From NCBI GenBank assembly GCA_023248155.1, contig JAHFFE010000002.1:42263-106262 (forward strand): a DNA stretch of 64,000 bases, read 5' to 3'. The translations under genes and the position numbers were made by a program. The notes beneath the pieces are model-generated. The model saw only the letters and a list, made by a program, of their open reading frames with translations, was not told the origin of the DNA and did not search any database. Shown one piece after another: positions 27,466 through 64,000 of this stretch (position 1 is its first letter; each line of letters opens with the position of its first letter). This DNA is from Candidatus Omnitrophota bacterium. Its GTDB lineage: Bacteria > Omnitrophota > Gorgyraeia > 1-14-0-20-64-10.

Positions 27466-27469
27466 ACCG

Positions 27470-31663: not shown

Positions 31664-32180
31664 GCGGTCGCGCGGCGTCAGTCTGCTTGAATTGATTTTG
31701 GCGGTTGGTCTTTTTTCTGTACTGCTGATTGCGCTGTTCGGTGTTTACCGGATCATTTTTATCTCGACCACGTCGGTTCAGGACCGGATGCAGCTGCAGC
31801 GGAGCGCCGAGCATGGCCTTGAAAAAGCGATCCGCGATTTGCGTACCGCGGTGGCGCTGCAGAACGATCCGAGCAACGCGATCCGGTACACGCTTCAACA
31901 GGGCGCTGCGCAGAATTCGTTTATTTTATATCTCTACAACGCGGCCGACCCGTTTCTGCCGCCTTACACGCAGCCGACGTATGAACTTCGGCAGGCGCCC
32001 GTCGCCGGCGCGATTGGCGGCGCGTTTGTGTATGGCGCCGGCACGCTGTTGGTGCGCGATGTTCAGCCGCCGCCGGCATCGGTTATTCAGGTTGCCGGAA
32101 CATTGGCAACGCTGGATCTCAGCGTGACGCGGGGAAACGAAACTTACCGTCTGGTTAAACAGGTCAGGCGCAGAAGTTGA
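31638..32180 (+). CDS. Minor pseudopilin (prepilin-type N-terminal domain)
   Basis: RGVSLLELILAVGLFSVLLIAL; overlaps the preceding gene. Confidence 0.65.
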   Translation: MSAMSSITRRSRGVSLLELILAVGLFSVLLIALFGVYRIIFISTTSVQDRMQLQRSAEHGLEKAIRDLRTAVALQNDPSNAIRYTLQQGAAQNSFILYLYNAADPFLPPYTQPTYELRQAPVAGAIGGAFVYGAGTLLVRDVQPPPASVIQVAGTLATLDLSVTRGNETYRLVKQVRRRS

Positions 32181-33073: not shown

Positions 33074-33075
33074 CG

Positions 33076-42003: not shown

Positions 42004-43446
42004 TTAGCTTGAATAGGTGATAACCACCCGCCCGACGGCGCCGTTATTGGATCCGGACGGAGATCGGGCAAACCAGCCGCATCCTCCGCCTCCGGGAGCT
42101 ACGCCGTCTGTTCCGATAAAGCGTGAACTGTTCAATTCACCAACGCTTCCGGCGCCACCATTTCCTCCGCTTCCTCCCGCCCGTTGGTATAATGTAAAAA
42201 ACGGCGCTATGGCATCCTGGCCCGAAATATTAAATGTTGCCGTACTGGTTCCGCCTCGTCCTACAATAGCTCCTTCAATTCCTCCAGAGCTTCCGCCTCT
42301 TCCGCCTGTAGCGCTAACAGCAGGGGGAACATTCAGTCCTGTTACGGAGGAGGTGCCGCCGTTGCCTCCGGTATTTGAATTTGTTTTCTGACCTGTTCCT
42401 CCGGCACCGACCGTGATGGTCAAAACGGCTCCAGGTGTTACCGTCGCGAGTTGTCTGCCGTAACCTCCACCTCCACCTCCGTGACCAAACTGAGCGCCGC
42501 CAGCGTTGGGGCTTCCGCCACCGCCACCTCCACCTCCCCAAACTTCAACTGTGACTCCTGTTACTCCGGCCGGTACAGTCCAGTTCGTTGCTCCGGCTGT
42601 GCCAAATACCACTTGCGTTGTCAGGCCTACGCTTCCGCTTACGGAGGCTAAAATAGTAGTCCATGCTGTTCCGTTGTAGAGATTTAATTGGTTCGTAGTG
42701 GTGTTGTAAATTATCAGCCCGGCTACTGGACCGGCAATCGCGTTCCGCTCGGCCGTGATCATTCGAGGAGGGAGAAACCCCTTTGTCGTAGAAGTCAGAT
42801 CCAATGCCGCCGATGCGGCCGGCGCCGCCGTTCCGATCCCCACATTCCCGCCCAGAGGGTTCAACACCAGGTTTCGGAAAGCCACATTCTGTGACTCCGC
42901 TTGAATGTAGCCGGTATTGGTAAAGTTGGTGCTGTCGTAATCCCGGTTGAACCCCAGCGCTAGGCCTCCATTCCCCGCAGCGAGGCTCGGCGTGTTCAGA
43001 TAAATGCCGCTTTGCCCGTTCGCTGAAATCCGCGCCCCGCTGGCCCCAGCTACATCCAACGCGTAAGCGGGGGCCGCCGTCCCAATCCCAACCCGTATTC
43101 CCGGAGTTCCCGGCACTCCAGCGTTGTCTGCTCCAGACGAGAAAATGACATTACTGATGGCGTCATCGGCCCCCACCACATGCAGCGGTCCCTGCGGGTT
43201 GGTAGTCCCGATACCCACTGGACCTACGATGAACGCCGCGCCATTGTTTAGAGGAGGGGTTGGCGTTGCCTCAAAATCGGTTCCGACCGTTAAGCTTTGG
43301 AGATGTTGATTGCCTGTGTTGGACGAAGAGGGGTAGTAGGTGACCAGTTCGACGGTTTCCGCCCACGCGTAACCGGCGAGGATGCCAATGATGAGGAATA
43401 AAAACAATGCGTTGCCGCTGGAAAACCTGCTTTTAATTTTTATCAA
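42004..43446 (-). CDS. Secreted glycine-rich protein with tail-fibre-like repeat motifs
   Basis: Signal peptide. Repeated VGIGTTNPQGPLHV, NVGIGTAAP…LDL and KGFLPPRMT…YNGTAW motifs reminiscent of phage tail-fibre/collar modules. C-terminal GGGGGGG-rich region. Confidence 0.5.
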   Translation of the reverse strand: MIKIKSRFSSGNALFLFLIIGILAGYAWAETVELVTYYPSSSNTGNQHLQSLTVGTDFEATPTPPLNNGAAFIVGPVGIGTTNPQGPLHVVGADDAISNVIFSSGADNAGVPGTPGIRVGIGTAAPAYALDVAGASGARISANGQSGIYLNTPSLAAGNGGLALGFNRDYDSTNFTNTGYIQAESQNVAFRNLVLNPLGGNVGIGTAAPAASAALDLTSTTKGFLPPRMITAERNAIAGPVAGLIIYNTTTNQLNLYNGTAWTTILASVSGSVGLTTQVVFGTAGATNWTVPAGVTGVTVEVWGGGGGGGGSPNAGGAQFGHGGGGGGYGRQLATVTPGAVLTITVGAGGTGQKTNSNTGGNGGTSSVTGLNVPPAVSATGGRGGSSGGIEGAIVGRGGTSTATFNISGQDAIAPFFTLYQRAGGSGGNGGAGSVGELNSSRFIGTDGVAPGGGGCGWFARSPSGSNNGAVGRVVITYSS

Positions 43447-44056: not shown

Positions 44057-44641
44057 ATGAGTGACGCGGAGCTGGTTGAACAAGCGCGTGCCGGAGACCG
44101 GCAGGCATTTGATCAACTGATGCAACGCTATGAGCGCGAAATGATCGGCGTGGCCTATCGAATGCTGGGCCACTCCGAAGACGCGGTCGATTTGGCACAG
44201 GAGGTGTTCTTGCGCGCCTGGCGCGGGCTCGGCCAGTTTCGCGGCGAAGCGTCGTTTCGCAGCTGGCTTTACCGGATCGCGCTCAATCTGGCGCGCAACA
44301 AACGCCGGTGGTACGCGCGCCATCGGATTGCTTCGATGGTTTCATTAAGCCCGTCCGACGAAGAGACCGAAGAAGGGGACCCTGCGCCGGTTGTACCGAT
44401 CGCTGACCCCTCGACGGATCCGCGTGCCGAGGCGCAGGCGAGTCAGTTTCAGGAAGCGGTGCGGCAGGCGTTGGAAAAACTTCCGGCGGAATTTCGGGAA
44501 ACGGTGATATTAAGGGATATTCAACAGTTGTCGTATGAGGAAGTCGCGCAAGCGACCGGACAACCGGTTGGAACGGTCCGGTCGCGGTTATCCCGCGGCC
44601 GGCATTTGCTGCGGGAAGCGTTAAAAGGAATTTATCCATGA
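44057..44641 (+). CDS. ECF (group IV) sigma-70 factor
   Basis: Region 2 (…DLAQEVFLRAWRGLGQFRG…SWLYRIALNLARN) and region 4 HTH (LSYEEVAQATGQPVGTVRSRLSRGR). Confidence 0.9.
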   Translation: MSDAELVEQARAGDRQAFDQLMQRYEREMIGVAYRMLGHSEDAVDLAQEVFLRAWRGLGQFRGEASFRSWLYRIALNLARNKRRWYARHRIASMVSLSPSDEETEEGDPAPVVPIADPSTDPRAEAQASQFQEAVRQALEKLPAEFRETVILRDIQQLSYEEVAQATGQPVGTVRSRLSRGRHLLREALKGIYP

Positions 44642-45591
44642 ACTGTCAGCAGTGCAGCGAACATCTTTCGGCGTACCTTGACGGACTGCTGTCGGCCTCT
44701 GAGCGGCAGGCGCTGGAGAGCCATTGCGCCGGCTGCGCCCGGTGCGCGGCGGAACTCGCCGATCTTCAGAAAATCCTGATAGCGCTTCCTCAATTGCCGC
44801 AGCCGCCGGTTCCGGAAAATTTCCGCCGCCGTGTCTGGTCTGAGATCGACCGGAAAGGACGGCCGCTCGATTCCTGGCTCATTAAATTGCCGGTAGGCGC
44901 TTTGGCGACGGCGGCCGTTATTTTATTGGTCGCGCGGGTTTCGCAAGATACCATGCCGCAAATGAAGGAACAGGCCGTGCTTTCCGATGTTGCCGCTGCT
45001 CGTTTTGCCGAGCCGACTATGCGACAGCAGAAGGCAGCTCCGCTTGCTGAACAAGAAGAATCAGTATCTGCAAAGGTCATTAATCAAGATAAAAACAAAA
45101 TGGAGTTAAAAGACAAAGCCGATCGATCCGAAGAAACATTGGGAAAATCCCAATCGGTTTCAGCGGCCGCGTCGCCTCAATTAGCGCCGCAACAAAACAG
45201 GGCTTCTATGAAAATGTTGGAAACGGAAGATGGAGAACTTGTTTCTGGGAGGAAAATGTCCGCCGATAGTTCTTCGGCAGCCAGCTTGGTTGCCGATGGT
45301 TTGGAAGATAAAAAATCCAGTTTCGATTCTGCTTATGGCGAATCTGAGCGATGGTTTTTAAGAGTAGAAGATCCATCGGCTACGCAGGTTTTGGTTAGGC
45401 ATATCCTCCAAGAAATGAATGCTTTCAATATTCGGTCGATTTCGCCCTACATAACCGAATTTCAGGTCTCGTTCGGCCAACGCGATTCTTTAAAACAGTA
45501 TTTAAATGAACTGGGCGATCTTCAGCAAGTATCTTCGGAAGATTCCACAATCGAAACAATAACCATTATTGTTCTCCAGCGAACATCGTAA
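44638..45591 (+). CDS. Zinc-binding (ZAS-type) anti-sigma factor, single TM, periplasmic C-terminal domain
   Basis: ATGA overlap with the sigma gene. CQQC…HCAGCARC HxxxCxxC-type motif. TM at PVGALATAAVILLVA. Confidence 0.75.
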   Translation: MNCQQCSEHLSAYLDGLLSASERQALESHCAGCARCAAELADLQKILIALPQLPQPPVPENFRRRVWSEIDRKGRPLDSWLIKLPVGALATAAVILLVARVSQDTMPQMKEQAVLSDVAAARFAEPTMRQQKAAPLAEQEESVSAKVINQDKNKMELKDKADRSEETLGKSQSVSAAASPQLAPQQNRASMKMLETEDGELVSGRKMSADSSSAASLVADGLEDKKSSFDSAYGESERWFLRVEDPSATQVLVRHILQEMNAFNIRSISPYITEFQVSFGQRDSLKQYLNELGDLQQVSSEDSTIETITIIVLQRTS

Positions 45592-45598
45592 ATTTTTG

Positions 45599-45624
45599 GG
45601 AACTTTTTCTTCCGCCCGGTGTCT
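45599..45624 (+). promoter_or_regulatory. ECF-type promoter P2 (GGAAC-N17-GTCT) before the precursor-MNIO operon
   Basis: GGAAC at 45599-603, GTCT at 45621-24. About 55 nt including the 5' UTR and GGGAGG Shine-Dalgarno are nearly identical to P3. Confidence 0.6.
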
Positions 45625-45653
45625 GCATCAGTAGAAAAGGGAGGAATAAACCA

Positions 45654-45863
45654 ATGAAAATTCCAGCGTCAGTGTTAGCGGTCATGTTGGTTGGATTGGG
45701 AAGCGTCGGCGTGATGGGCTGTGCCGCGCACCAGACTCCGACTGAAAAAGCACCCAAAAATAAACCGGACTCTGTTGAGCCGGCTGCCAACCCCCAACCC
45801 GAAACACCGAATCGCCCGAGTCGTTCTGCCGGTTATGAGTGTCGTGCCTGCGGAATGGGATAA
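45654..45863 (+). CDS. 69-aa secreted/lipobox peptide with C-terminal YECRACGMG; candidate RiPP precursor
   Basis: MKIPASVLAVMLVGLGSVGVMG|C signal + lipobox. Pro/Glu-rich linker, C-terminal CxxC. Immediately upstream of the DUF692 gene and behind the GGGAGG Shine-Dalgarno of P2. Confidence 0.55.
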   Translation: MKIPASVLAVMLVGLGSVGVMGCAAHQTPTEKAPKNKPDSVEPAANPQPETPNRPSRSAGYECRACGMG

Positions 45864-45865
45864 AA

Positions 45866-46738
45866 ATGGGGATTCCTCTCGTAGGGCTGTCGTTAATGCC
45901 GGAGGACCCCTTTCGTCAGGCGGCCTACCCTCTTTTTGAAGCGGGGGAAGTCGATGTTCTGGAATGGAGTTTTGATATGGGGTGGGCCGGCGCTCCGTTG
46001 CCTGAATGGATGGAGCAACTGCTCCATCTTTATGGGCAGCGGGGCCGCCTGCTGGGGCATGGAGTTTCATTTTCGCTCTTGTCCGGACAGTGGACCGACC
46101 GCCATCAGAGGTGGCTGCAATTATTATCGGAAGAAGCCACTCGCCACCGGTACCGGCATATCTCCGAACATTATGGATTTATGACGGCCGGAACTTACCA
46201 GAAAGGGGCTCCATTACCGGTCCCCAAAACTCCCGATACAGTTCGTCTCGGGCAGGACCGGTTGCGCCGGCTGGCCGAAGCGGCCGGATGTCCGGTCGGG
46301 CTGGAAAATCTGGCGTTTGCGTTTGGCGCTCATGATGTTTGGGATCAAGGTTCTTTTTTGGAAGAACTGCTGGAATCAGTGGATGGCTTTCTTCTGCTCG
46401 ATCTTCATAATCTCTACTGCCAGTCGGTAAATTTCAAAGCGCCTTGGACTGAATTAGTCGCGCAATACCCGCTCCATCGCGTTCGGGAGCTGCATCTTTC
46501 AGGCGGGTCCTGGTTCGCCGGTGAGCCGTCTTCCCGCTATGAACCGATCCGGCGCGATACGCACGATGGCGCTGTGCCCGAGGAACTTTTCGCTATGCTG
46601 CAGTCCATTTTGAAACGGGCTCCGGCGGTTGAAGCGGTAATTCTCGAACAGCTGGGCGATTCATTAGAGAGCGACGAATCGAAGGTTCGATTCCAGGCCG
46701 ATTACCGGAAAATTCGGGCGATTGTCCATGGACAATAA
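45866..46738 (+). CDS. DUF692 / MNIO (multinuclear non-haem iron oxidative) enzyme, MbnB/TglH/BufB-like
   Basis: Start at ATG 45866 (MGIPLVGLSL…), 3 nt after the peptide stop. HGVSFSL, SEHYGF, PVGLENLAFAF, LLLDLHNLYCQSVNF, VRELHLSGG and RRDTHDG match the conserved DUF692 TIM-barrel blocks. Confidence 0.8.
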   Translation: MGIPLVGLSLMPEDPFRQAAYPLFEAGEVDVLEWSFDMGWAGAPLPEWMEQLLHLYGQRGRLLGHGVSFSLLSGQWTDRHQRWLQLLSEEATRHRYRHISEHYGFMTAGTYQKGAPLPVPKTPDTVRLGQDRLRRLAEAAGCPVGLENLAFAFGAHDVWDQGSFLEELLESVDGFLLLDLHNLYCQSVNFKAPWTELVAQYPLHRVRELHLSGGSWFAGEPSSRYEPIRRDTHDGAVPEELFAMLQSILKRAPAVEAVILEQLGDSLESDESKVRFQADYRKIRAIVHGQ

Positions 46739-46991: not shown

Positions 46992-48911
46992 ATGACTATT
47001 CAAACAAAGATTTTCGCGATTGCGGTGGCAGCGGTAGCGTGGATTACAGCCGGCCAGTCTTTTGCCGAGGCAACGACCGAGCCGTATTCATTGGAGCAGG
47101 GCCGTTATTCCGCGGTTGTCGACGGGGAAAAAGTTAAAATTCAGGCGGCGCTGGAATTCAAGGTGCTTGAAGACGGCCTGATCCAGATTCCGGTTTCGTT
47201 TGGCGGCGCCGAAATTCTGGATCTGAAATTATCCGGAGGATCCGCCGTGTTGGCGGTTGAGAACGACCAATACACGGTTCGGATTAGCCGCAAAGGAACC
47301 GTTCGGCTGACGGCCATGTTGATCGTGCCGTTGTCGCGCAATGCGGATCAGGAAGGGTTTTATCTCGAGATTCCGCAGGCGGTTTTTTCTTTCTGCACGG
47401 TCACGGTTCGGCGCGCCAGCGTGCAGTTAAGTCCTAATTATGCGGCCGCCGGAACCAGTCAGACCCGCGGCGATCAGACGATCATTACGCTGCCGTTGGG
47501 CTTAAAGCGGCAGGCCCAGGTTTTCTGGACGGTCCGCCCAATCCAGGAAACGCCGAAAACAACAGAACCGGTGGAGCCGGTTTATTTGGCGAATCTGCAG
47601 CTGCTGGGCACGCTGGAAGAAGAAACATTCCGTTGTTTGGCCACCGTTGATTTGCATCTGCTGCAGGGCGAATTAAAAACGGCTTTGTTCGAGCTGCCTT
47701 CGGGCTGGACCGTTACCGGGGTGCGCGGGGGTTCCGGCATTGCGGATTGGAAGACCGAGGCGGCCGGTTCGAATCAGCAGATCACGGTTATTTTCAACCA
47801 GCCGTTCAAGGAGGGGAACCTTCGTCTGCTGATTGATGCCGAACAACCGCTGAGCAGCGGCAGTGCCTCGGTTTCTTTGCCGAGTATTATTCCGGTCGGC
47901 GCAAAACGGTTAACGGGCCAATTGGCGCTGGCAACGGCCACGGCCATGGAATTGAAAGATCCGGTGATGGAAGGGGTCAAGCGGATCGATGTCCGGGAAT
48001 TGCCCGACGAATTGCGCGCGATGGCCAACGCGCCGGTCGTGGCGGCATTTCGTTATATGGAAGCCCCTTACCATGTGACGACCCAATTAATCCGTCCCGA
48101 AGAATTGCCGGTATTGGTGGCGATCGCTGAATCGGGAGAGTTAATCACGGTGGCTGCGCCGACGGGTGAAACCATTACGCGCGCGATTTATCAAATCCGT
48201 AATAACAAAAAAACAACGCTGAGCGTCACACTGCCGGCGGGGTCTACGCTCTGGTCGGTGCTGGTCGACCAGCGTCCGGTGAAGCCGTCGGCCGGACCGC
48301 GCGGGCAGATTCAAATTCCGATCATGAACAACCATGGTCCGGAAACGGTCTTCCCGGTGGAAATCGTCTATGTCCAGAAAACCGGTTCATTGAAATCGTT
48401 ACTTGGCCAAGTCCGTTACGAAGGTCCCGGCCTCGATATCCCGGTCACCGTTTCGTCCTGGAAACTGCTTTTACCCGACGGATTGATAAAGATCGGTTAT
48501 TCCGGCAATGTAGAAGCTGGTTTTTCGGTGAACACGGTGCCAGTCGAATTGGCTGCTTATCGCGATGTTTCGGCGAATGCGGCGCTCCGACGGGACTCTG
48601 CCCGATGCCAAAAAGTATTAGCCGCTGCTCCGGCAGCGCAGTCGTTGGCCGATTGCGAGTATAAGGTAAAGGAAGAATTTCAGGAGGTGGTTGGTAAAAC
48701 TCAGCAAACCGGCGTGCTGCCGTTCCGGATTTCAATTCCGCAGAGCGGCCGCGTTTACCGGTTTGGCCGGTTGCTGGCCGTCAACGAGCCGATGTCGGTC
48801 CAGATTAATTATGTCCGGACATCCGCAATGCCGTTCGCCAGCGGCGGAATGGTGTTTGTTGGATTGATGGGGCTGGCGGGTGTTGCCCGGCTGGTTCGTG
48901 CCAAGAAGTAA
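46992..48911 (+). CDS. Large secreted beta-rich protein with C-terminal TM anchor; member of the ECF regulon
   Basis: Signal peptide MTIQTKIFAIAVAAVAWITAGQSFA, C-terminal GGMVFVGLMGLAGVARLVRAKK. No catalytic motif recognised. Confidence 0.55.
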   Translation: MTIQTKIFAIAVAAVAWITAGQSFAEATTEPYSLEQGRYSAVVDGEKVKIQAALEFKVLEDGLIQIPVSFGGAEILDLKLSGGSAVLAVENDQYTVRISRKGTVRLTAMLIVPLSRNADQEGFYLEIPQAVFSFCTVTVRRASVQLSPNYAAAGTSQTRGDQTIITLPLGLKRQAQVFWTVRPIQETPKTTEPVEPVYLANLQLLGTLEEETFRCLATVDLHLLQGELKTALFELPSGWTVTGVRGGSGIADWKTEAAGSNQQITVIFNQPFKEGNLRLLIDAEQPLSSGSASVSLPSIIPVGAKRLTGQLALATATAMELKDPVMEGVKRIDVRELPDELRAMANAPVVAAFRYMEAPYHVTTQLIRPEELPVLVAIAESGELITVAAPTGETITRAIYQIRNNKKTTLSVTLPAGSTLWSVLVDQRPVKPSAGPRGQIQIPIMNNHGPETVFPVEIVYVQKTGSLKSLLGQVRYEGPGLDIPVTVSSWKLLLPDGLIKIGYSGNVEAGFSVNTVPVELAAYRDVSANAALRRDSARCQKVLAAAPAAQSLADCEYKVKEEFQEVVGKTQQTGVLPFRISIPQSGRVYRFGRLLAVNEPMSVQINYVRTSAMPFASGGMVFVGLMGLAGVARLVRAKK

Positions 48912-52251: not shown

Positions 52252-52335
52252 TGCCGAGGGAGAGAATCGAACTCTCATGGGGTTGCCCCCGCAGGTTTTT
52301 GAGACCTGTGCGTCTACCGATTTCGCCACCTCGGC
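52252..52335 (-). tRNA. tRNA-Leu (anticodon CAA)
   Basis: Minus-strand cloverleaf GCCGAGG…CUCAAAA…long variable arm…GAGAG-UUCGAUU-CUCUC…CCUCGGC-A. CCA is not encoded. Confidence 0.85.
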
Positions 52336-52357
52336 GGGAGAATGAAGAGAAAATTTA

Positions 52358-52430
<73 letters not shown>

Positions 52431-54937: not shown

Positions 54938-55208
54938 CGTCACCGTCGCGCGCTTCCGTCAGGCAAACCCTTTTTCGAGTCGGCTCGTGTATGGGGACCG
55001 TGGACACGCTCGGAATTGATTACCCATTCCATCGGTGCGCCGAGGCGCCTGGTGGCGTAACTTCCGCTATCGCCAGCCGCTCTGTCTCCGGCCTTGCCGA
55101 AGAACAATTCGATTCGGCCTCCGCCAAGGTCCACTTGCCCCATATCCCGATCCGCCTCTACCCACGCAGGCGCTTTGGTGACGCGGGTGATGTAAAAAAT
55201 AGATAAAC

Positions 55209-55243
55209 TTGCATTGATTTATTGTAATTTATAAGGTATAGTT
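55209..55243 (+). promoter_or_regulatory. Sigma70-like promoter in an AT-rich island before the giant gene (TTGATT-17 nt-TATAGT)
   Basis: -35 TTGATT at 55214-19, -10 TATAGT at 55237-42. ATG at 55255 has no obvious Shine-Dalgarno, so the leader is very short or absent. Confidence 0.4.
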
Positions 55244-55254
55244 TCTCTATCATC

Positions 55255-58200
55255 ATGAAACACCAATCTAGTCACCCTATGGGGCCGCGAACCCCATTTT
55301 TATTTGGCCGTTTTTTGAGCGCTTTGCTAATCATTAGCATGGTGCTGACGATCCCGCATGCCTATGCCGACACTCTGCGCGTTTCCAACGCCGGTCAGGA
55401 AGAGAATCCAGTTCGCACCCTTCTGGAAACCGAATTATCCGCCGACCAGAAGGCGGATGCTGAAACTTCTCTTTCCATAAAACAAGCAGTCTCCGAGGAA
55501 GACGAAGACGAAAATGAGTTTGAATGGAGAATGCCGTTGCCGAAACAAGCGGGTGATTTCGAGCTGAACGAAGGTTTTCTGTCGGATGACCATCCGGCAG
55601 TTCGGGTTGTATCCGAGCGGCTGAACGCGCTTCTTCCTGATCTGAAACCGGATGAACGGCCTCAATTGCGGGTCCTGGCTTCCCGCGGCCAGGGGATCCA
55701 GGCCCTGATGTTTGAGGATGGCACCCTCGTGGTAAGCCCAGAATTGGTAGATGTGGTCGAATATGAAGAGGAGTTGGATTTTGTCCTCCTGCATGAAATC
55801 AACCACTGGCATCGAAAACATATTAAGCAAACGGAGCGACTTCTGGAAAGCGGAGGAATTCTCACTGCCGTAGTGCGCTCGTTGGGATTAGACAGGTACC
55901 AGGAGTATGAGTCGGATATGGCCGCTTTCTGGGGGTTGCTCGATCGCCGGCGCAGCGGGTTGGGGGCCGTGATTTTTATGGAACGTCTGGAAAAGGAACG
56001 CCTGGAGAAAAAGAGGATCATGGTGGATTGGGATCTCGCGCACGGGACAATGCGGGACCGGATCCTGAATATGAAGAGTTTGATCCCATTGGTGCATATG
56101 CAATATCTAGACGCACCCCTGCATCCGATGGACCCGTCGGTCCGGCAGTCGCTCTCCTCCCTTCCGATTGAAGGGTTAATGGATCGATTGATGAGGATTC
56201 CGAGCCGGCAATCCGGAGTTCAAGAAAAGCATCTGGAGGCGCTGGAGCCGGAAATCCGGGCCCTCTCTCCCGAACTTCGTCTTCAGTTTATCGGTTATGC
56301 GGTGGGCCTGATGGATCAAGCGTTTGCTCATGCGCTGACGGAAATGGAATTGAGAGTAATTAATCTTGACAGCGAGAGAAACGCGGCGGGCGATGTGATT
56401 TGGAGTAAGGAAGAATTGCGCCGTCTTTCTGAGGTGTCGGGTCGCGTGAACTATGCCCCGCGCGCTATACCGCGCTTTTTGCACTTATGGAATGAAACCG
56501 TTTCCGGGATGCTCTCTGGAGTTTCTCCTGAGGTAGCGATTTTCCTGAACCAGCTTCTTTACAAACTGAATATGGAAGGACGTCTTTATAACATCCTGGA
56601 GGATCAAACCTTTGAAGGCCTAAAAGAAGTTCTTCTATCGGAAACGGATGCGGAACGGGAATCGGTGGATGAAGAGCTTCTGCAGATCAAAAACCATCTC
56701 CTGGCACAACGGGAAAGCTATTTATCCGTTTTGGAATTGCCAAAATTGGAGAATGCTTTGGAGGTGTTGGAAAATCCGGTTTCAAGGGCGGAATGGGTGG
56801 ATCGGCTCGGAAGAATGTCCCGAATGGGAGCTGGAATCAACGCCGGTTTGTCGTTTATGGTGGAGCAGATCTCTTCCACTATGGCTCAGCGGCCCGGAAG
56901 AGATTTTCTTTCGGAAACGGGGGAGCTGCTGGCTGCGTTTCGTGACCTGATGAGCCGATCCGAAGTCCTGCGTCAGGAAACCGTGGTCCGGCATATGAAC
57001 CGGGTTTGGACCCAGCTTTTTATGAGACAGGCGGCGCTTCTGCATACCGAAGCAGCGGGCCTGGAAGAAGGGTTCCATAAGACGGTTGCGGAGGTGGCCC
57101 GGCGGCATGGTTTTCAGGAGGATGTCACCGGGATCAGAGAAGAGCTTAGAGTCCATCCGGAGATGAAACCCTGGGTTGGAAAATACTTTGATGCGTTTAC
57201 TCAGCAGGAGTCGCTGTTTCGACGGTTGGATCAGATTGAGGAAGACCTTTCAAAAATCGATGTAAAGGATCGAAAAGCCGCCTCCGCACCTTATCAAATC
57301 CTGTTGCTGGAGGCCGCGAATTTGCTCAACGGTGTTCCCGAGATTGTTCCTGTGGAAGGCGAACTACGGAAAAGAATCGATCGGGCTGAATTCAAGATCC
57401 GGTATTTGAACAGGGTGGTGGGGCTGCGGGTCAATTATAGAGATTTCACGCTCTGGGGACCAGAGCAAGCCCTGTTGCCCGATCCGATTTCGATGGATGA
57501 TCTGCGGTTTCTGGTTGGCTGGTGGGCTTCTGTGGCGGAGGACAGTCGGGAGTATCAGGAAGGGGTTAAGCTCCTCTCACAAAAGGAACAATGGATGGAT
57601 CATTGGAAGAAAGTGGCCAGAGTGGAGGAAGTGAATGCTTTGGCGGACACATTGACGAGTCCCAGTGAAGCGGCGCAATCCATAGGGACGGTCATCCACA
57701 GCGGTCTTGCCGGGTCCCAAATCCATTCCGAAGAAATCAGGAAGGTTTTTTACGATTTGGCGCAAGAAGTATTGGAGCGTGACATGGCCCAGGCAAAGAG
57801 CGAGGAGGTGTTTTTTGGTTTATTGGATGGTTACGCCCAGCGGTGGCCGGTTCGTCCTAATGCTGAGGTGGTACGAAAAGGGGTGCAGTTCCTGAACGCT
57901 TCGAAAAGCACCGATCAACCCCTGATTTGGCAGAGGAGATTACTGTTGAGTTTCTTTGCCTCCGACCCGCTCATTCGACGTCAATTGGGCGAGTATTCAG
58001 TGCTTCAAATCGTTCAATCAGAGAGGGTCTCCTTCGATGACGCCTACGCGCTTTTGTTCGAGCGCTACAAACCGCAGGGAACGGCCGGTGGGTTGAGGGC
58101 CCTGAGGGCTTTGCTGGATCGGGCACATACCTACCCGGAACTGGACCGGTTGAAAGAGGCCGGCGCCGATTTCCTGAAGTTCCTGCAAAGTTCTCTGCTG

Positions 58201-61200
58201 GCTGGTGGAGCGGTGCTCGCGGAAGGGGGTGTGGAGCATTGGCTCGACGTCGGGGACCGATCCCAGCTTTTTCGATCTTTGATGGCCAGCGGGCAGGACG
58301 ATTGGCTGCTGCGCCGGCAGGTGGCTTCTTATTGGACGGGAATTTACAGCGAAATAATTAACTCCATGCTTATGAACAATTTCGAGCGCGACCTGCGCTA
58401 TTGGGACGACGCAGACGAAATCGAGGACTGGAGCGGCAGGAGTCCGTCTATCTCTGTGAACCGTGTCAGCCCGTTTGAGCTGGCCATGGACCGGATTTAT
58501 ATGTTGGGGGATCCCGAACGCTACGCCATGCTTCGAAAGCTGCTGGCGGATGAGGATGGTATTTTGCGCAGGGCCCGCCATGACCTGTTGGATGCTTTCC
58601 TGAACCAGCACCTGGATTCCAGCGGAGAGGAGCGGGCGGCTGAAGTGGTTTCTGAGGTGCTGGGGACAGTTCTCAAGATCATGCCCGAAGACGATCTGTT
58701 TTTGCTGGTTGCCCCGTTGTTGATGGATCGGATTGGCAACCCGCCGGAATCTCCCGCGGAACCGGCTGAAGCAAGCGTGGAGACGGAAGATTGGAGCCGG
58801 CGGATTGCGCTGCGACTGGCAAGGAGTGCCGGGCTTAGGAAGGGTCAGCGCCAGAATTTTGTGGAGACGATGGCGCCGGCGCTTGAAAGAAAGTTTTCCT
58901 GGTTCTTGCGGGGACACGGTCCGGATGTGACGCCCGACCCTGGAGCGGAGCGGGATCTTTTCTCGGTGGTTCCGCCGGAGTTTTACCAGAACAGAACGCA
59001 TCCGATGAGTCCGCTGGAGATGACTCTCGAGACGGCCCGCCAGCTGGGAGCGCCGGGGGTGCGGTTCCTTCAGTTGGTGGGGCAGACGGTCCGGCTTCCT
59101 GAAGATTACCGGAAGCAATTTCTGACCGTTTACGACAATGTAGAGGGGCAGTCTTTGCTGTCCGTCGCCGAAACGATCCGGAATCTTCTTCCAGAGTATG
59201 CCGGGCGGATTCAGCGGTTTGTGCGCCGTCTTGGAGGAGGCTCGATCTACACGGTATGGGAAGTAGAGGTCGTGGCCACCGAGGAGGAATATCCGGGCCG
59301 CGCCGGGGAGCTGGTCCGTGAGGCGGTGCGGGTTGTCAATCCGAACGCGCTGTATCGCTCGCGCAAATCGGTGCAGGTGATCCGGGACGCGCTGACCCAG
59401 CTGGCTCAAGAACAGCCGCAATCCGGCTATGCGCTGGCGCTTCCCATGGTGGATCTTCTGGAGGAGTGGATCGCGAAAGAGCTGGAGGACACTTCTTTTG
59501 AAGCCGATGATCAAGAGTTCCGGAGCCGCTGGAACGGCTGGGCCCCCGAAGGATTCCAGAAAACGGTAGTGGTCCCGCGAACCCTGCCCACTGGCATTCC
59601 GGAGATCCGACGGGCGGAGTTCCTGCCCGGGGAGAGCTTCACGTCCCTGGATTCGCTGGAGAACGCAGAACAGAGAGAGCTGGTTGCGTTGGCCAGTCAT
59701 TTTTATTTTCAACAGGTGGTGGATTCGGTTCAGCAAGTTTTGTCCGGGCAGAGAGAGGAGACCCTGATCCTCTCCGATATTTCTGTTGGGAATTTTCTGA
59801 GGACTTCCGAGGGACATCTGGGGGATCTGGACCGAGGGATGTTCTTGAAGTTTAATCGGACGGAGGCCGGGGTTCTCATGAATTTCAGCTTTGCCGCCAC
59901 GGTCCAACAACGGGCCGAGGTGTTGATCTCGCATCTCTGGACGCTGGACCTGAACCAGGCATCCTCCGAAGACCTTGCCCAGCGGGGGGTGAGCCCGGCC
60001 TCCATGGCGGCGGAGATTGCGGGCGGATTGGACCCTGTCGGCTCCATGGAGAAAACGGCTTTGGATGTAATTTTGGGCATTCAAAACCGTGGGTTGCGTG
60101 TTCCATTGCAGTTCCAGTTATTGTTCAAGAATTTCAATGCTTTAAGAGAGATCGCTGACGGGGAGATGAGCCCGCAGGCCCGTTTCGGTTCTTTGGAAGC
60201 GGCTCTGCAGTATCTCCCCACCGCTGGCCAGGAAGAAAACGGAACTGATCAGCTGGTGAATGGTGCGCGCGGCCAGCTGATTCTTTACCATCGGTTTAGA
60301 GCCGCCGCTACCACCTCGGAAGCGCTTAAACAATATGGTTTATACGAAGCAGCTAGGATCAAACCCCGGTTAGAAAAAATTCTTTCTTCCGCTGCGCTAG
60401 GAGGACTTAAGTATGCGGTCATTAATTTAATGGAACATGGAAATGGCGGCGACCTGGAAATTTTCTTAACCCAGCCCGATGCCGACGGCATCTCTCGCGT
60501 GACGGTCCGTCTGGCCGATGATGGCCCCGGGATTGCGGATCCTCGTGAATTGCTGGCACGAAGCATCGAGGCGCATTCCGGCGTGCGGGCAAGTCGGTAT
60601 GAAGAACCGCGCGGATACGGCTGGAAAAATATCGCCGCCCCGTCCGCTGAAATGACAGTCGAGTCGGGCCATGTGAAATGGCGACTTTTCAAAGAGGCAA
60701 ATAATCTTCGTTTTAAATTGGACGAGGAACCCTCCGATGTGAGTAAAGGCACTGTGATTACTGTGGTTTACGAATCCACCGCTGCCGGGCAGGAAGAAAC
60801 AACATGGAAGGGGCCGACCGATCCGGTTGATGCGGTAACCCGGTTGGTGAACGCATTGATCGCGCAGGGATATAAAGGAGAACAGAGGCTTACTTTAGAC
60901 CGGACATCAACACTGCTCAAGCGATCGCCAACACAGCAAGCGCTTTCTTTGAATCCGGGGCTGGTTGCCGAGATGAACAGCCTCTTGAAAAGAGTGGCTG
61001 CAGTAAAAGAACCACGGATGAAATTATTGAAACCGGTTTGGACAAAGTTCCACGGATCAGAATTAGCAGTCGTCATTATTCAAAAAGGACCCGTTCCGGT
61101 TCGCACCGATCCCGTTGAAGTGGTATCCCGCTTGGTGGATGCATTGATTGCGCAGCAGGCCAGCGGAGAACGGCAGCTTGCTTTAAAACAGACAGTACGG

Positions 61201-64000
61201 CTTTTGAATGGGGTACCCAGCCAAGCGACTCTGTCCAGGAATTCAAAGGTTCTCACTCGTATAAATGAACTGTTAGAAATTGTGGCAGCGGATGAACAAC
61301 CTTCCGAGCCGCAGTTGATACCGGCTTGGGAGAAGTTCCATGCATCGCGGCTGAAATCGGTGGTCATCGCGAAAGAAGTGCGCACTGCCGGCCAGGAGGA
61401 GAGTATCTGGGAGGATATTTCGCAGGCATTTGGAATTTCAAAGGATTCGCTTCTGGAGCGCTTATCGGAGCGGGATAGAAATCAGCTAAGAAGGGCAACC
61501 GATATCACTGCTCCTAAAATGATTGTTCTTTACGCGCGGATTTTTGGTGTATCGATCCCGGCGCTTCAGCAAACGCAGCTGGCGCAAAGAATCGTAGCCG
61601 CTCGAATTGTTACAGAAAAGCCCATGCCGGCAAGAGTTCGGAGGGCCTACGACTCTTTGGAGCGAAGCCTGCTTGATTCCGATATTGATAGCGGAGTCCG
61701 GCAAATGGCGCAGAATGTCCGCGAAGAATTGGCAGAACTCTCTTCGGAAGATCCAGCCGTCCGGACGCTGAGGCAGCTGGTTCAGCCGAAGGATTATTCA
61801 CAACAGCAGGAAACTATTTTGGAAAGAGCGGCTCGATGGGTGGCGGGGGCTCTGGACCCTGAATCTCAGAATATAGATGAAACCGTCGCCGATCTTCGGG
61901 CCATTACGTCATCTCACTCCATAGAACAGATGGCCAAAGTCCTTAAGGCGGATCAGGCGTTCTCATTGGGTGAGCCCTGGCGGCTGAAGGCTCTGTTGAG
62001 AAGCCTGCTTCAAACAGACAGCTTCTTTTTTCCGGCTCGGTTTTCAGGCGGCAGAATAGTTCCCCTGCTGGTTGTTGTTGATTCCGACAGTGCGTATCCA
62101 TTGCCGCGGTTTGCCGGCAATGCCGCCCATGAATACGCCCATGCTCTGTTGATCCGCCGTCCGTTTTGGAAGGAACAGGTCACGGGAACTTCGATGGCGG
62201 ATTGGATTACCCAAGCCGTAGAATTACTTGCTGCGGATCGAATCGCTTTGGAAAACAGCGAGAATCCGGACCCCTATTTGTCTGTCTTGTATCGTGAGGG
62301 AGAGCGACTTGCCTTGCAGGGGTCTTCCTCGGAATGGGAGTCAATGCTGAGAGAATTAGATCAATTCCCTGATTCAAAGCGCTGGTACTTGCAAGGTGTT
62401 TTCATTGGCGGGTTGGCCAAAGGACTTGGAAAGCGGGCGGCCGATCAAACAGCGCGGTCGGCGGAACCGTTCGCAGCGCATGAACTGGGACTCCGTTTTA
62501 TTTCCTCTTTGGCGGATGCGATTGCTGAATCCGGCGGGCGTTCTCCGATCGAGGTCTTGATTAAAACGGCACAAGGTTTCCCGGAGATCGCTCCCGCCGG
62601 CCAGGAAGAGCGACAAGTTCTTCGATTCTATCCGGACCAGGGCGGAGCAAAAATAATTGCAGAACAAGGAACAAGTTGGACACCACTCTCCCCGGTTTCT
62701 CCTCAACGATTGATTTTACCCAACGATCCAGGCTGGCGTCTTGCCGTCGAAGAGCCCCGGCTTCGACAGCTGGCGGAATTTCTGTTCCAGCAATTCCAAA
62801 CTAATATTGCCCAGGGATATCCGCTTCAAACGGGGGATAGAAATATCGTAGAAGCCATTCGAGCTGTTTATCCCATTCCTGGTTTAGAACCATACGAAGG
62901 AATGCTTACTCAGAGTAATTTCATGAATCTGATTGATCTGCTGGACAGAGGGCTGTTTCTTCGGGCTGGCGCGTCCATTCAATTATTCGCAGGCGGAAAG
63001 ATTGCTGCTTACATTACGCTGGATCTTCCGTGGCAAGAAATTTCATATCTGGGCGGGCGTGCCAGCACGTGGCTTGTCTCCACGAAACTTCAAATCGATC
63101 AAAGAGATCCGTACTCGTTCATTTACGGGTCTAGCTTCATGAACCTGAGCCTGTACGATCCCGCGGTTGGCCAGCAAGCGATGGAGTTCCAGTATCAGGA
63201 ATTTTTATCTAAGGGAAAAAGCCGAGGTGTTCCACCGGCGGCTCTCCAGCTGATGCAGCAGCTTCATGACCGTGATCCGGTAATATATCAGCGGTTATTT
63301 GGTGTTGACAGCTCGAAACAAGAGGAAATTAACCACGCGCGTGATTTTGTCTGGGCTGCCTATTTCTATCCGATTGTTGTTGACGCTAAAGAAGGGGCGA
63401 CGCAGCCCTTTGTCGCGGAAGCGGTCATTCGACCCGATTCCTTTTTGGACCGGACGGTCTGGAATCGTTCCAAGCGAAGAGCTTCAGACCTTGTATTCTC
63501 TGCTCGAAATATTGTAGAACTCTCCGGGCAGACGCAGGGATTGGTCGATACACTGCAGGCATTAAGAGATAATCAGGGGGAAGATTGGGCGTACGGTTAT
63601 TTCTGGCTCTATCTGTTCCAAAAAACGGAGGAAAGGTTGCATCGGCCCGGAACGGTTGCCGCGGGGCATGATCGGACAGCGGCAGAATCAGTTTTTGATT
63701 TTTTGAAGGGGGAAGGGTTCGCCGATCTTCAGCAGATAGAAGATCATCTGCGGATGGTGCCCAACGCTCACGGATCCAGAGCGCTGGGAATTGCCCAACG
63801 GCTCCATGATGAAAATTTTCTGACCGAAGCCGAACGCGTCGCTATTCTGGAAAAAAGTGAACGAGGAGAACTGGTTTCCCTGGGTGTTCGCCAGACCGCC
63901 GCCGGCCAGGAAGAAAATGCAGTGCAAGCAATTACCGCCGACGAAATCCGCGCGCGGTTTGCCGATATTTCGGTGCAGGATGGGGAAACCGGATATTTGG
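55255..64000 (+). CDS. Giant secreted multidomain protein; at least 2915 aa within the window and continuing past the right edge
   Basis: Manual frame-1 translation from ATG 55255 to 64000 shows no stop; frame confirmed against the +1-offset track ORFs at 56648 and 57707. N-terminal signal peptide (MKHQSSHPMGPRTPFLFGRFLSALLIISMVLTIPHAYA|D). HEINH at about 55792 and HEYAH at about 62128. GHKL-like motif block (DDGPGI…GYGW) at about 60520-60620. Two ~96-aa tandem repeats at 60784-61402. Recurring AGQEE motif. Absent from the track because it has no stop; track ORFs on the minus strand here (e.g. 58018..60084) are antisense artefacts. Confidence 0.8.
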   Translation, partial: MKHQSSHPMGPRTPFLFGRFLSALLIISMVLTIPHAYADTLRVSNAGQEENPVRTLLETELSADQKADAETSLSIKQAVSEEDEDENEFEWRMPLPKQAGDFELNEGFLSDDHPAVRVVSERLNALLPDLKPDERPQLRVLASRGQGIQALMFEDGTLVVSPELVDVVEYEEELDFVLLHEINHWHRKHIKQTERLLESGGILTAVVRSLGLDRYQEYESDMAAFWGLLDRRRSGLGAVIFMERLEKERLEKKRIMVDWDLAHGTMRDRILNMKSLIPLVHMQYLDAPLHPMDPSVRQSLSSLPIEGLMDRLMRIPSRQSGVQEKHLEALEPEIRALSPELRLQFIGYAVGLMDQAFAHALTEMELRVINLDSERNAAGDVIWSKEELRRLSEVSGRVNYAPRAIPRFLHLWNETVSGMLSGVSPEVAIFLNQLLYKLNMEGRLYNILEDQTFEGLKEVLLSETDAERESVDEELLQIKNHLLAQRESYLSVLELPKLENALEVLENPVSRAEWVDRLGRMSRMGAGINAGLSFMVEQISSTMAQRPGRDFLSETGELLAAFRDLMSRSEVLRQETVVRHMNRVWTQLFMRQAALLHTEAAGLEEGFHKTVAEVARRHGFQEDVTGIREELRVHPEMKPWVGKYFDAFTQQESLFRRLDQIEEDLSKIDVKDRKAASAPYQILLLEAANLLNGVPEIVPVEGELRKRIDRAEFKIRYLNRVVGLRVNYRDFTLWGPEQALLPDPISMDDLRFLVGWWASVAEDSREYQEGVKLLSQKEQWMDHWKKVARVEEVNALADTLTSPSEAAQSIGTVIHSGLAGSQIHSEEIRKVFYDLAQEVLERDMAQAKSEEVFFGLLDGYAQRWPVRPNAEVVRKGVQFLNASKSTDQPLIWQRRLLLSFFASDPLIRRQLGEYSVLQIVQSERVSFDDAYALLFERYKPQGTAGGLRALRALLDRAHTYPELDRLKEAGADFLKFLQSSLLAGGAVLAEGGVEHWLDVGDRSQLFRSLMASGQDDWLLRRQVASYWTGIYSEIINSMLMNNFERDLRYWDDADEIEDWSGRSPSISVNRVSPFELAMDRIYMLGDPERYAMLRKLLADEDGILRRARHDLLDAFLNQHLDSSGEERAAEVVSEVLGTVLKIMPEDDLFLLVAPLLMDRIGNPPESPAEPAEASVETEDWSRRIALRLARSAGLRKGQRQNFVETMAPALERKFSWFLRGHGPDVTPDPGAERDLFSVVPPEFYQNRTHPMSPLEMTLETARQLGAPGVRFLQLVGQTVRLPEDYRKQFLTVYDNVEGQSLLSVAETIRNLLPEYAGRIQRFVRRLGGGSIYTVWEVEVVATEEEYPGRAGELVREAVRVVNPNALYRSRKSVQVIRDALTQLAQEQPQSGYALALPMVDLLEEWIAKELEDTSFEADDQEFRSRWNGWAPEGFQKTVVVPRTLPTGIPEIRRAEFLPGESFTSLDSLENAEQRELVALASHFYFQQVVDSVQQVLSGQREETLILSDISVGNFLRTSEGHLGDLDRGMFLKFNRTEAGVLMNFSFAATVQQRAEVLISHLWTLDLNQASSEDLAQRGVSPASMAAEIAGGLDPVGSMEKTALDVILGIQNRGLRVPLQFQLLFKNFNALREIADGEMSPQARFGSLEAALQYLPTAGQEENGTDQLVNGARGQLILYHRFRAAATTSEALKQYGLYEAARIKPRLEKILSSAALGGLKYAVINLMEHGNGGDLEIFLTQPDADGISRVTVRLADDGPGIADPRELLARSIEAHSGVRASRYEEPRGYGWKNIAAPSAEMTVESGHVKWRLFKEANNLRFKLDEEPSDVSKGTVITVVYESTAAGQEETTWKGPTDPVDAVTRLVNALIAQGYKGEQRLTLDRTSTLLKRSPTQQALSLNPGLVAEMNSLLKRVAAVKEPRMKLLKPVWTKFHGSELAVVIIQKGPVPVRTDPVEVVSRLVDALIAQQASGERQLALKQTVRLLNGVPSQATLSRNSKVLTRINELLEIVAADEQPSEPQLIPAWEKFHASRLKSVVIAKEVRTAGQEESIWEDISQAFGISKDSLLERLSERDRNQLRRATDITAPKMIVLYARIFGVSIPALQQTQLAQRIVAARIVTEKPMPARVRRAYDSLERSLLDSDIDSGVRQMAQNVREELAELSSEDPAVRTLRQLVQPKDYSQQQETILERAARWVAGALDPESQNIDETVADLRAITSSHSIEQMAKVLKADQAFSLGEPWRLKALLRSLLQTDSFFFPARFSGGRIVPLLVVVDSDSAYPLPRFAGNAAHEYAHALLIRRPFWKEQVTGTSMADWITQAVELLAADRIALENSENPDPYLSVLYREGERLALQGSSSEWESMLRELDQFPDSKRWYLQGVFIGGLAKGLGKRAADQTARSAEPFAAHELGLRFISSLADAIAESGGRSPIEVLIKTAQGFPEIAPAGQEERQVLRFYPDQGGAKIIAEQGTSWTPLSPVSPQRLILPNDPGWRLAVEEPRLRQLAEFLFQQFQTNIAQGYPLQTGDRNIVEAIRAVYPIPGLEPYEGMLTQSNFMNLIDLLDRGLFLRAGASIQLFAGGKIAAYITLDLPWQEISYLGGRASTWLVSTKLQIDQRDPYSFIYGSSFMNLSLYDPAVGQQAMEFQYQEFLSKGKSRGVPPAALQLMQQLHDRDPVIYQRLFGVDSSKQEEINHARDFVWAAYFYPIVVDAKEGATQPFVAEAVIRPDSFLDRTVWNRSKRRASDLVFSARNIVELSGQTQGLVDTLQALRDNQGEDWAYGYFWLYLFQKTEERLHRPGTVAAGHDRTAAESVFDFLKGEGFADLQQIEDHLRMVPNAHGSRALGIAQRLHDENFLTEAERVAILEKSERGELVSLGVRQTAAGQEENAVQAITADEIRARFADISVQDGETGYL
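60784..61402 (+). repeat. Tandem ~288-nt (about 96-aa) intragenic repeat inside the giant gene
   Basis: Unit 1 …TDPVDAVTRLVNALIAQGYKGEQRLTL…WTKFHGSELAVVII…; unit 2 …TDPVEVVSRLVDALIAQQASGERQLAL…WEKFHASRLKSVVI…. Each unit is bounded by A-G-Q-E-E (gccgg(g/c)caggaagaa). Confidence 0.7.

Follow-up and report, generated by a model that had tools for sequence, protein, structure and literature searches.

The 64,000-nucleotide stretch of a Candidatus Omnitrophota genome analysed here (assembly GCA_023248155.1, contig JAHFFE010000002.1, positions 42,263 to 106,262; hereafter 'the window', in the coordinates of which positions are given) carries, adjoining leuS, a single open reading frame (ORF) encoding six autonomous modules (M1 to M6) in a row, joined by the pentapeptide AGQEE. 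This junction, which in its more general form reads AGxEE, is conserved at the peptide level. We propose, with a probability of about one half, that the gene encodes a Sec-exported cassette polyprotein, the junctions of which would serve as sites of trans-acting processing or sorting, and the modules of which would become separate exported proteins for interaction with a host or prey cell. A preliminary description of the window had presented the product as a giant secreted protein of a poorly characterised kind, with two HExxH motifs and a GHKL-like motif set. Our analysis supports a large, poorly characterised Sec-exported product in which an M48 zincin and a segment resembling GHKL occur; the description missed the organising feature, i.e. 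the AGQEE junction that recurs at the module boundaries.

The frame opens with the ATG at position 55255 (+ strand) and, as already described, runs through 2915 codons to the window edge with zero stops; the closest in-frame stop on its 5' side lies at position 55225, with no ATG, GTG or TTG in between. The proposed size (more than 2900 residues) was borne out, but the gene is not open-ended: the full-length product has 3037 aa, a protein identical to it exists in the public collection (P0001), and the stop codon would fall at window coordinate 64366-64368, approximately 122 codons beyond the edge (ORF length 9.1 kb). Because an independent ENA assembly of the same organism (L017), which differs from the window in 3 of 21,493 bases, encodes exactly P0001, we conclude that the gene is complete at 3037 aa and is no assembly artefact; the check for a frameshift, an in-frame stop or a misassembly thus ended with two independent assemblies in agreement. 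The gene was indeed missing from the program-made ORF list, since this list omits ORFs that run off the end of the source sequence.

AGQEE occurs six times in the protein (residues 46, 1657, 1844, 2045, 2448 and 2883; J0 to J5 in Table 1) and AGLEE once (residue 601). The first copy sits directly after the signal peptide and a short DTLRV box, and each of the six modules is preceded by AGQEE. Seven AGxEE copies compare with a mean of 0.145 and a maximum of 3 in 2000 shuffles of the protein, and no AG[QA]EE was found in any other reading frame of the 64-kb window (the motif counts given here and below cover the window and the recovered loci).

By using LeuS as a synteny anchor, we recovered the same genomic slot from Omnitrophota in which LeuS is 68-74% identical (the locus of the window, L017, having been recovered through an identical LeuS). 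The flanks are conserved, with DUF212, YkuD, accA, cobO and leuS on one side and comEA, comEC, PilZ, BamD, LptE, holA, rpsT, murJ and uvrC on the other, and the gene that they enclose comes in eight variants of 160 aa (L018/L019), 288 aa (L024), at least 977 aa (L020, contig end), 996 aa (L023), 1564 aa (L002), 2379 aa (L021/L022), 2567 aa (L025) and 3037 aa (the window). All variants but one start with a signal peptide, a [T/A]LR[V/P] box and [A/S]GxEE (the signal peptide precedes the called start in L024 and L025), and their junctions read [A/S/P]-G-[Q/A/L]-E-E; the 160-aa variant is devoid of a signal peptide and looks degenerate. The modules, from one to about seven per variant, are mostly unrelated across the variants, and among those that are related the breakpoints of homology coincide with junctions. 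The single module of L024, for instance, corresponds to residues 29-287 of the L021 protein and ends at a junction.

Two relatives illustrate this pattern at the level of individual modules. P0003, the 1564-aa variant of L002, has a nearly identical signal peptide and TLRVSNAGQEENP; its first module is a different one, M1 and M4 are missing, and M2, M3, M5 and M6 follow with 68-73% identity, linked through AGQEE or AGLEE (the blocks shared with the window protein being residues 1-63, 1656-2049 and 2448-3037). P0002 (1782 aa) is encoded elsewhere, its gene following one for an MnmA-like protein. From the signal peptide through the leader to the end of M1 it shares 37-39% identity with the window protein; the resemblance ceases precisely at the junction (AGQEE 1657-1661 in the window protein, AGAEE 1629-1633 in P0002), after which P0002 continues with an unrelated tail of 149 aa. 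Judging from these comparisons, the leuS-comEA slot is a hypervariable locus in which the flanks, the promoter block, the signal peptide, the leader and the junction motif are kept. The eight combinations of modules at this syntenic position, together with a ninth elsewhere (P0002), amount to a natural experiment. The earlier suggestion that the gene was horizontally acquired as a whole is therefore not the best description, given that the signal peptide, leader, promoter block and flanks are vertically conserved and it is the internal modules that turn over.

The excess of junctions recurs in the relatives. Six AGxEE copies were counted in each of L021 and P0003 (shuffle means of 0.07-0.15 for these two and the window protein), and seven copies of [A/S/P/T]GxEE in each of L025 and L023 (shuffle means of 0.13-0.24); altogether the slot variants hold up to seven copies, written as AGAEE in L021 and as [A/S]GLEE in L023 and L025, against shuffle means of 0.03-0.24. 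Across 41 junction instances the G and both E residues are invariant; the first residue is A in 33, S in 7 and P in one, and L, Q or A takes the third place. The sequence upstream of the junctions is linker-like (16% proline versus 5.7%), and nothing is conserved downstream. Synonymous codons vary among the AGQEE copies in four of the five codons, which indicates that selection acts on the peptide and not on the DNA. The counterpart of J2 in L021 (PGAEE) is aligned with it although the flanking modules are merely 28-31% identical, and by this alignment the junction is better conserved than the domains that it separates.

The same layout is found outside the slot. At another locus of a related genome (L018:14212-15104, L019:14198-15090; coordinates of the first ~300 residues only) we observed a 1363-aa exported WD40 beta-propeller protein with a signal peptide, an ALR box, TGLEE, AAGLEE and then AAGMEE just before the WD40 part. 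Because this unrelated protein carries the same layout, the junction grammar is a property of the clade and is not specific to the locus. P0046, a 5166-aa protein from another lineage (Logan contig), contains GEKSYPAG eight times (at residues 130, 493, 818, 1115, 1365, 2919, 4136 and 4829), and the copies at 1365 and 2919 bracket a full M1 module, which suggests, by analogy, that junction words are lineage-specific. The rule is not universal, since a recurrent junction word sought in other giants of the family (P0014, P0015, P0023, P0119, P0010 and others) was found in none except P0046. As an observation on the leader, a [D/A][S/T]LR[V/P] box also stands directly after the signal peptide in many signal-bearing members of the M1 family (P0002, P0009, P0016 and P0020), and an obvious signal peptide is mostly absent from the versions of the Candidate Phyla Radiation (CPR). 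We tentatively entertain the broader notion that [A/S/P]-G-x-E-E together with [T/A]LR[V/P] might form a clade-wide 'cut-and-sort' signal for a protease or export factor, so that exported proteins would be encoded as shufflable cassettes within one ORF each, and that other lineages might use words of their own.

We reason that, after export, the junctions would be recognised by a trans-acting processing and/or sorting enzyme, by which the precursor would be cut into separate proteins, each with the same tag at its start or end. The precursor would then correspond, at the level of the protein, to an operon for secreted factors, in which modules could be gained, lost or swapped at the junctions. 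The products would probably act outside the cytoplasm, on a host or prey cell, the locus supplying a changeable set of factors. The role in processing or sorting is suggested because G, E and E are invariant across unrelated domains, because one junction copy precedes the first module, because M1 is mostly a free-standing protein that ends at the junction, and because cleavage of Omnitrophota giant proteins has already been proposed and the sites have been lacking; the interaction with host or prey is suggested because a mostly predatory or parasitic lifestyle has been predicted for the phylum. The M48 domain was considered as an obligatory cis-processing enzyme and rejected, as variants without M1 (P0003, L021 and others) keep their junctions. 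The presence of BamD and LptE downstream in the syntenic loci indicates that the bacterium is a diderm.

Several points weigh against the cassette polyprotein. Junction cleavage is read from sequence, and no candidate protease or sorting enzyme for the junctions was identified; the motif could instead be a structural or docking element of an uncleaved protein. Some spacers between junctions are merely 11-48 aa long (L023, L025 and P0003), which fits poorly with one junction per folded module, and the AGLEE copy inside M1 (residues 601-605), which is not conserved in P0002, may be a chance occurrence or a vestigial junction. The AlphaFold2 models of the C-terminal modules (mean pLDDT, i.e. predicted local distance difference test, of 39 for M2-M4 and 34 for M5-M6, from alignments of 2-3 sequences) were too poor to place the junctions in disordered linkers or to name module folds. 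Finally, the role towards a host or prey draws solely on lifestyle predictions at the phylum level and on the occurrence of the family in metagenome-assembled genomes (MAGs) of Omnitrophota, CPR and DPANN. At the C-terminus of the 996-aa variant (L023:7744-10734, residues 849-996) we observed four junction motifs spaced 37-48 aa apart, which, if cut, would yield short peptides and not domains.

The foremost competing explanation is that the product stays one uncleaved 330-kDa chain, a multidomain exported enzyme or adhesin in which AGxEE acts as a conserved hinge between domains, binds a metal or a partner, or serves as a docking tag. We regard it as rather unlikely. Acidic EE pairs and upstream richness in proline are typical of passive linkers too, and giant Omnitrophota proteins have been proposed to be intact surface coats or adhesins (PMC10066038); however, a passive linker would not hold G, E and E invariant in 41 of 41 instances across unrelated domains, nor would it need a copy between the signal peptide and the first module, and M1 for the most part exists as a free-standing protein ending at the junction.

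That the junction is a recombination site acting on the DNA (a direct repeat of the form GCC GGC SNG GAR GAR that permits cassette shuffling), with no role in the protein, is improbable. It would account for the coincidence of homology breakpoints with junctions, and the GCCGGC core is frequent; the copies, however, differ synonymously in four of five codons and have Q, A or L as the third residue, fifteen imperfect bases are short for homologous recombination, and all copies are in frame and in one orientation, so that only a secondary role of this kind is compatible with the data.

Still less probable is a polymorphic toxin of the CdiA, Rhs or MafB type, in which AGxEE would be the demarcation motif ahead of variable C-terminal toxins. 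P0001 and P0002 do have a common N-terminal part followed, after a short motif, by unrelated sequence, and a shared N-terminus with a variable tail resembles the arrangement around VENN-type demarcation motifs. Yet no small immunity-like gene lies downstream (comEA comes next in every variant), scans with Pfam and NCBIfam gave no Rhs/YD, filamentous haemagglutinin, PAAR, LXG or known toxin domain, the N-terminal module is dispensable (P0003, L021 and others are without M1), and the motif occurs up to seven times and not once. From the anatomy of the locus, we consider this explanation as largely refuted.

Mutually unrelated modules and a composition that varies along the gene could also betray an assembly chimera, a fused pseudogene or separate genes masked by frameshifts, but this has next to no probability given the agreement of two assemblies (3 mismatches in 21.5 kb and an identical protein), the lack of any stop in 3037 codons and the same continuous architecture in relatives assembled from other samples. 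An equally negligible chance is left to mimicry of Ras-family switch II (DTAGQEE) as a decoy or substrate mimic for a GTPase-modifying enzyme: several copies (within 60223-63915) read TAGQEE like the Ras/Rap G3/switch II sequence, and the literature matches for AGQEE were all Ras papers, but in orthologous junctions Ala or Leu stands at the position of the Gln, no GTPase-like domain was found with Pfam, and an identity over 5-6 residues is weak, the likeness being probably coincidental.

Among known systems, the MARTX (multifunctional-autoprocessing repeats-in-toxin) proteins of Vibrio and relatives would be the functionally closest analogue of the cassette polyprotein, as they too are very large secreted chains of unrelated, strain-variable effector modules, which are released by processing of the inter-effector regions (PMC6315884), and recombination of the rtxA1 gene generates toxin variants (Kwak et al. 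2011, as cited in PMC6315884). In contrast to MARTX, the window protein has no RTX (repeats-in-toxin) repeat arms and no CPD (cysteine protease domain) in Pfam and NCBIfam scans, carries a Sec signal peptide instead of relying on type I secretion, has a fixed pentapeptide junction and no conserved scaffold but the leader, and its putative processing would occur in trans. The P97/P102 adhesins of Mycoplasma hyopneumoniae offer a parallel in that these large surface proteins are cleaved at a short motif that recurs along the chain and has an acidic residue on the C-terminal side of the scissile bond (S/T-X-F|X-D/E, located in disordered regions, protease not known; PMC3322551), but motif and lineage differ, and the mycoplasma fragments belong to one adhesin family, not to a shuffled set of unrelated enzymes, with no variable-cassette locus.

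Within the phylum, the comparison is with the giant ORFs of Omnitrophota ('Archaeovorins'), which are similarly poorly annotated, multi-domain exported proteins in which HATPase_c is frequent. Those ORFs exceed 20 kb or have at least 30,000 aa and many transmembrane helices, whereas the window gene (9.1 kb) encodes a soluble product with no such helix besides the signal peptide, occupies a defined variable slot and bears an explicit junction motif in repeated copies. Most Omnitrophota have been proposed to be predators or parasites (PMC10066038). Cleavage of the giant proteins has also been proposed, with no cleavage points known, and the missing information on these points blocked their analysis (10.1101/2023.11.21.568195). 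We found no mention of M48, UbiB or a polyprotein in the Omnitrophota giant-protein literature (10.1101/2023.11.21.568195 and a 2026 preprint), and none of cleavage or a linker in the 2026 preprint; relative to this literature, the junction signal and the defined variable locus of the proposed modular secreted polyprotein are previously undescribed.

Omnitrophota, like other ultrasmall host-dependent microbes, are marked by giant exported proteins with poor annotation; whether and where these are cut is an open question, for which this locus provides a simple, testable rule (one fixed pentapeptide at each boundary between modules). Should the junctions be processing sites, they could be searched for in metaproteomes, used to split giant ORFs for structure prediction and used to find the enzyme that reads them; if the cut-and-sort idea is true, junction words could divide the giant proteins of episymbiotic and predatory nanobacteria into functional units.

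M1, with a length of approximately 1600 aa, consists of an M48 zincin, a helical region and a probable UbiB-like kinase fold. Both HExxH motifs reported for the protein exist, but only the first (HEINH, residues 180-184) belongs to a recognisable zincin. Peptidase_M48 (PF01435) scored 25.0 bits (cut-off 20.3), with just ~50 residues matched in the single-sequence scan, and the family profile matched PDB entry 3c37 (E = 1.7e-9), BepA (~2e-5) and Ste24p (8e-4). Positions H96, E97 and H100 are invariant in a 17-sequence alignment, the third-zinc-ligand motif RYQEYESD (residues 214-221) aligns with 'sReyEnqAD' of 3c37, and HExxH and an R..E.E[A/S]D motif lie within 80 aa of each other in 95 of 154 family proteins. 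On this evidence, the N-terminal part of M1 is a true M48-type zincin and a predicted peptidase. It shares the HExxH, R..E.E(A/S)D and H(G/P)....R motifs with M48 peptidases (BepA, HtpX, Ste24 and the Geobacter protein 3c37), but unlike these it continues into about 1300 more residues, with the UbiB-like fold at their end.

The C-terminal ~430 aa of M1 probably adopt an ABC1/UbiB-like kinase fold, the match being weak in the window protein itself (11.6 bits versus a cut-off of 22.9; 26-38 bits in the homologues P0006, P0008 and P0019). The family profile matches the UbiB-like structure 5yjz of M. tuberculosis (E = 4e-4) through the H.D..PGN and D(F/R)G motifs, and the region contains a catalytic-loop-like SDISVGN (1507-1513) and a DFG-like LDRGM (1525-1529), in which G, N and D-R are invariant in the family alignment. 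The position of the ATP-binding Lys holds R or K across the family ([RK][VI][LVM]NPN) and Arg in the window protein (VRVVNPN). One relative has been named 'AarF/UbiB family protein' by NCBI. Classical UbiB proteins are membrane-associated cytoplasmic or mitochondrial factors; M1 resembles the ABC1/UbiB proteins (AarF, COQ8) in the alignment to ABC1 over the C-terminal 430 aa and in the catalytic-loop and DFG-like motifs, and differs from them in its predicted export behind a Sec signal peptide and in the Arg that replaces the ATP-binding Lys.

A HMMER search with residues 861-1667 retrieved 450 representatives at E<=1e-3 (217 of them below 1e-30), which defines a large uncharacterised family of M48 zincin plus UbiB-like kinase proteins with at least 450 representatives. 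This architecture is typical of uncultured lineages (Omnitrophota, CPR, Elusimicrobia and DPANN), and members were found in MAGs of Omnitrophota, Peribacteraceae, Paceibacterota, Saganbacteria, Elusimicrobia, uncultured Bdellovibrionales and Micrarchaeota. Most are stand-alone proteins of 1450-1650 aa with M48 and ABC1, which end 0-5 residues past the position of J1, and a minority are giants of up to 6307 aa. No relatives were returned by a scan of genome contigs with the N-terminal 1000 aa, nor by scans of metagenome contigs with the alignments of the C-terminal modules and of M1.

For M2, a GHKL (histidine-kinase-like) motif set had been noted. Its DDGPGI (1755) and GYGW (1787) are present, and the N, G1 and G2 boxes are largely conserved in three homologues, but the family assignment stays below threshold (HATPase_c_2, E = 0.08, 13.4 bits versus a cut-off of 27.4; E = 0.005 for the homologue in L021), and the profile of the module gave only noise against PDB. 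Separate GHKL modules in the L020 variant scored above the cut-off (37.1 bits). The tandem repeats described earlier correspond to M3, where two copies of ~95 aa (residues 1855-2044) are ~45% identical by alignment count. The second HExxH motif (HEYAH, residue 2292) falls in M4, a module for which no search made gave a homologue; the motif itself had no family, PDB or homologue match, and with a chance expectation of ~0.07 HExxH per protein of this composition it may be fortuitous, a second zincin being unproven. M4, M5 and M6 matched no known family, and the NCBIfam scan and the single-sequence PDB phmmer search of the window protein were without matches. In a phmmer search of M2-M6 against 150 other family proteins and the six-frame ORFs of L001-L016 only P0003 was recovered, and BLASTP against the leuS-slot variants gave a counterpart of M2+M3 in L021 (28-31% identical). 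As a side observation, the last module of most variants is ~135-155 aa long (149, 149, 145, 155, 135 and 142 aa among M6 and the last modules of L001, L018, L021, P0009 and P0020), and no shared ancestry was detected among these terminal modules (no phmmer match; hhalign probability 0.3%).

The Sec signal peptide, which the preliminary description had also recognised, shows a basic n-region, a hydrophobic stretch and a putative cleavage site, AYA|DT. Kyte-Doolittle windows of 19 residues exceed 1.6 only at residues 13-20 of the 3037-aa protein, and the product is thus predicted to be a Sec-signal-bearing precursor that is otherwise soluble. A match to the sigma70-like promoter proposed ahead of the gene was likewise found, within a block that is conserved in L002: some 70 nt before the ATG are kept in this orthologous locus (61 of the last 75 positions), and the sequence farther upstream is unrelated (12 of 68). 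The promoter scan returned 3 sites versus 0.4 expected, and the last 100 nt ahead of the ATG have 38% GC. The contrast in composition had been overstated (low-50s against about 60% GC): the gene has 53.8% GC versus 56.2±2.4% in 29 window ORFs, i.e. a deviation of about 1 SD (GC3 57.5% versus 64.8±6.2%), and this deviation is confined to the C-terminal modules, with residues 501-1656 being typical (GC3 65%) and M2-M5 low (GC3 48-53%).

Table 1. Features of the modular gene and its 5' region (window coordinates; residues refer to the 3037-aa protein).
Feature	Position	Strand	Basis
CDS, modular exported protein, 3037 aa	55255..64000 (cut by the window edge; true end 64368)	+	translation; P0001; L017
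Conserved 5' control block with sigma70-like match TTGATT-17-TATAGT (55214-55242)	55186..55254	+	promoter scan; conservation with L002
Sec-type signal peptide, residues 1-38, ending AYA/D	55255..55368	+	sole hydrophobic segment; nearly identical in P0003
Leader box DTLRV (clade consensus [T/A]-L-R-[V/P]), directly after signal peptide	55369..55383	+	alignment of relatives
Junction J0, AGQEE (46-50)	55390..55404	+	motif scan
Module M1 (51-1656)	55405..60222	+	member of widespread ~1500-aa M48 + UbiB-like family (HMMER)
M48-type zincin core: HEINH (55792-55806), RYQEYESD (EYESD 55903-55917), HG..DR (56038-56061)	55507..56064	+	Pfam; profile matches
AGLEE inside M1 (601-605)	57055..57069	+	not conserved in P0002
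ABC1/UbiB-like region: GGGSIYTV (59233-59256), VRVVNPN (59326-59346), SDISVGN (59773-59793), LDRGM (59827-59841)	58942..60222	+	Pfam in relatives; 5yjz; alignment
Junction J1, AGQEE (1657-1661)	60223..60237	+	P0002 homology stops exactly here
Module M2 (1662-1843), GHKL/HATPase-like: NLMEHG, DDGPGI, GYGW	60238..60783	+	motifs in three homologues; HATPase_c_2 E = 0.08
Junction J2, AGQEE (1844-1848)	60784..60798	+	kept as PGAEE in 28-31%-identical L021 counterpart
Module M3 (1849-2044), two-copy ~95-aa tandem repeat (60817-61101, 61102-61386)	60799..61386	+	self-alignment
Junction J3, AGQEE (2045-2049)	61387..61401	+	motif scan
Module M4 (2050-2447), orphan, HEYAH (62128-62142)	61402..62595	+	absent from P0003
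Junction J4, AGQEE (2448-2452)	62596..62610	+	motif scan
Module M5 (2453-2882), orphan family	62611..63900	+	73% identical in P0003, which also has a 27% paralogue
Junction J5, AGQEE (2883-2887)	63901..63915	+	motif scan
Module M6 (2888-3037), start of terminal module	63916..64000 (continues to 64365)	+	P0001; L017

On the opposite strand, a 688-aa ORF (58018-60084, -) lies inside the GC-rich part of M1; it had no match in the family scan and is almost certainly a shadow ORF of the + strand gene. The adjoining LeuS is 62-71% identical to proteins of Candidatus Omnitrophica/Omnitrophota MAGs (64% to that of Velamenicoccus archaeovorus), and immediately upstream of leuS, on the opposite strand, tRNA-Leu(CAA) and tRNA-Ala(GGC) are located at 52252-52430 (-).

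Elsewhere in the window, a type IV pilus/type II secretion system (T2SS)-like set (25792-34653; a PilB-like T2SSE ATPase with MshEN, a T2SSF platform protein and PilM) is interleaved with histidine kinases, and a second T2SSE-PilZ ATPase is encoded at 40529-41926 (-); these genes may be relevant to surface attachment or export in the phylum. A 480-aa protein with a Gly_rich_2 domain (42004-43446, -), the L017 counterpart of which was also tagged PTL_trimer, may be a fibre- or tail-like surface protein. The region 44057-46738 (L017:1550-4427) contains genes for an extracytoplasmic function (ECF) sigma factor, a zf-HC2 anti-sigma factor and a member of the MbnB/TglH/ChrH family (DUF692), flanked by two ORFs of ~68-69 aa, and may represent a stress-response cluster or one akin to those for ribosomally synthesised and post-translationally modified peptides (RiPPs). 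A 639-aa ORF with no Pfam match lies at 46992-48911 (+), and L020 (670 aa) and L025 (673 aa) have unannotated ORFs of comparable length in a similar place, on the upstream side of DUF212.

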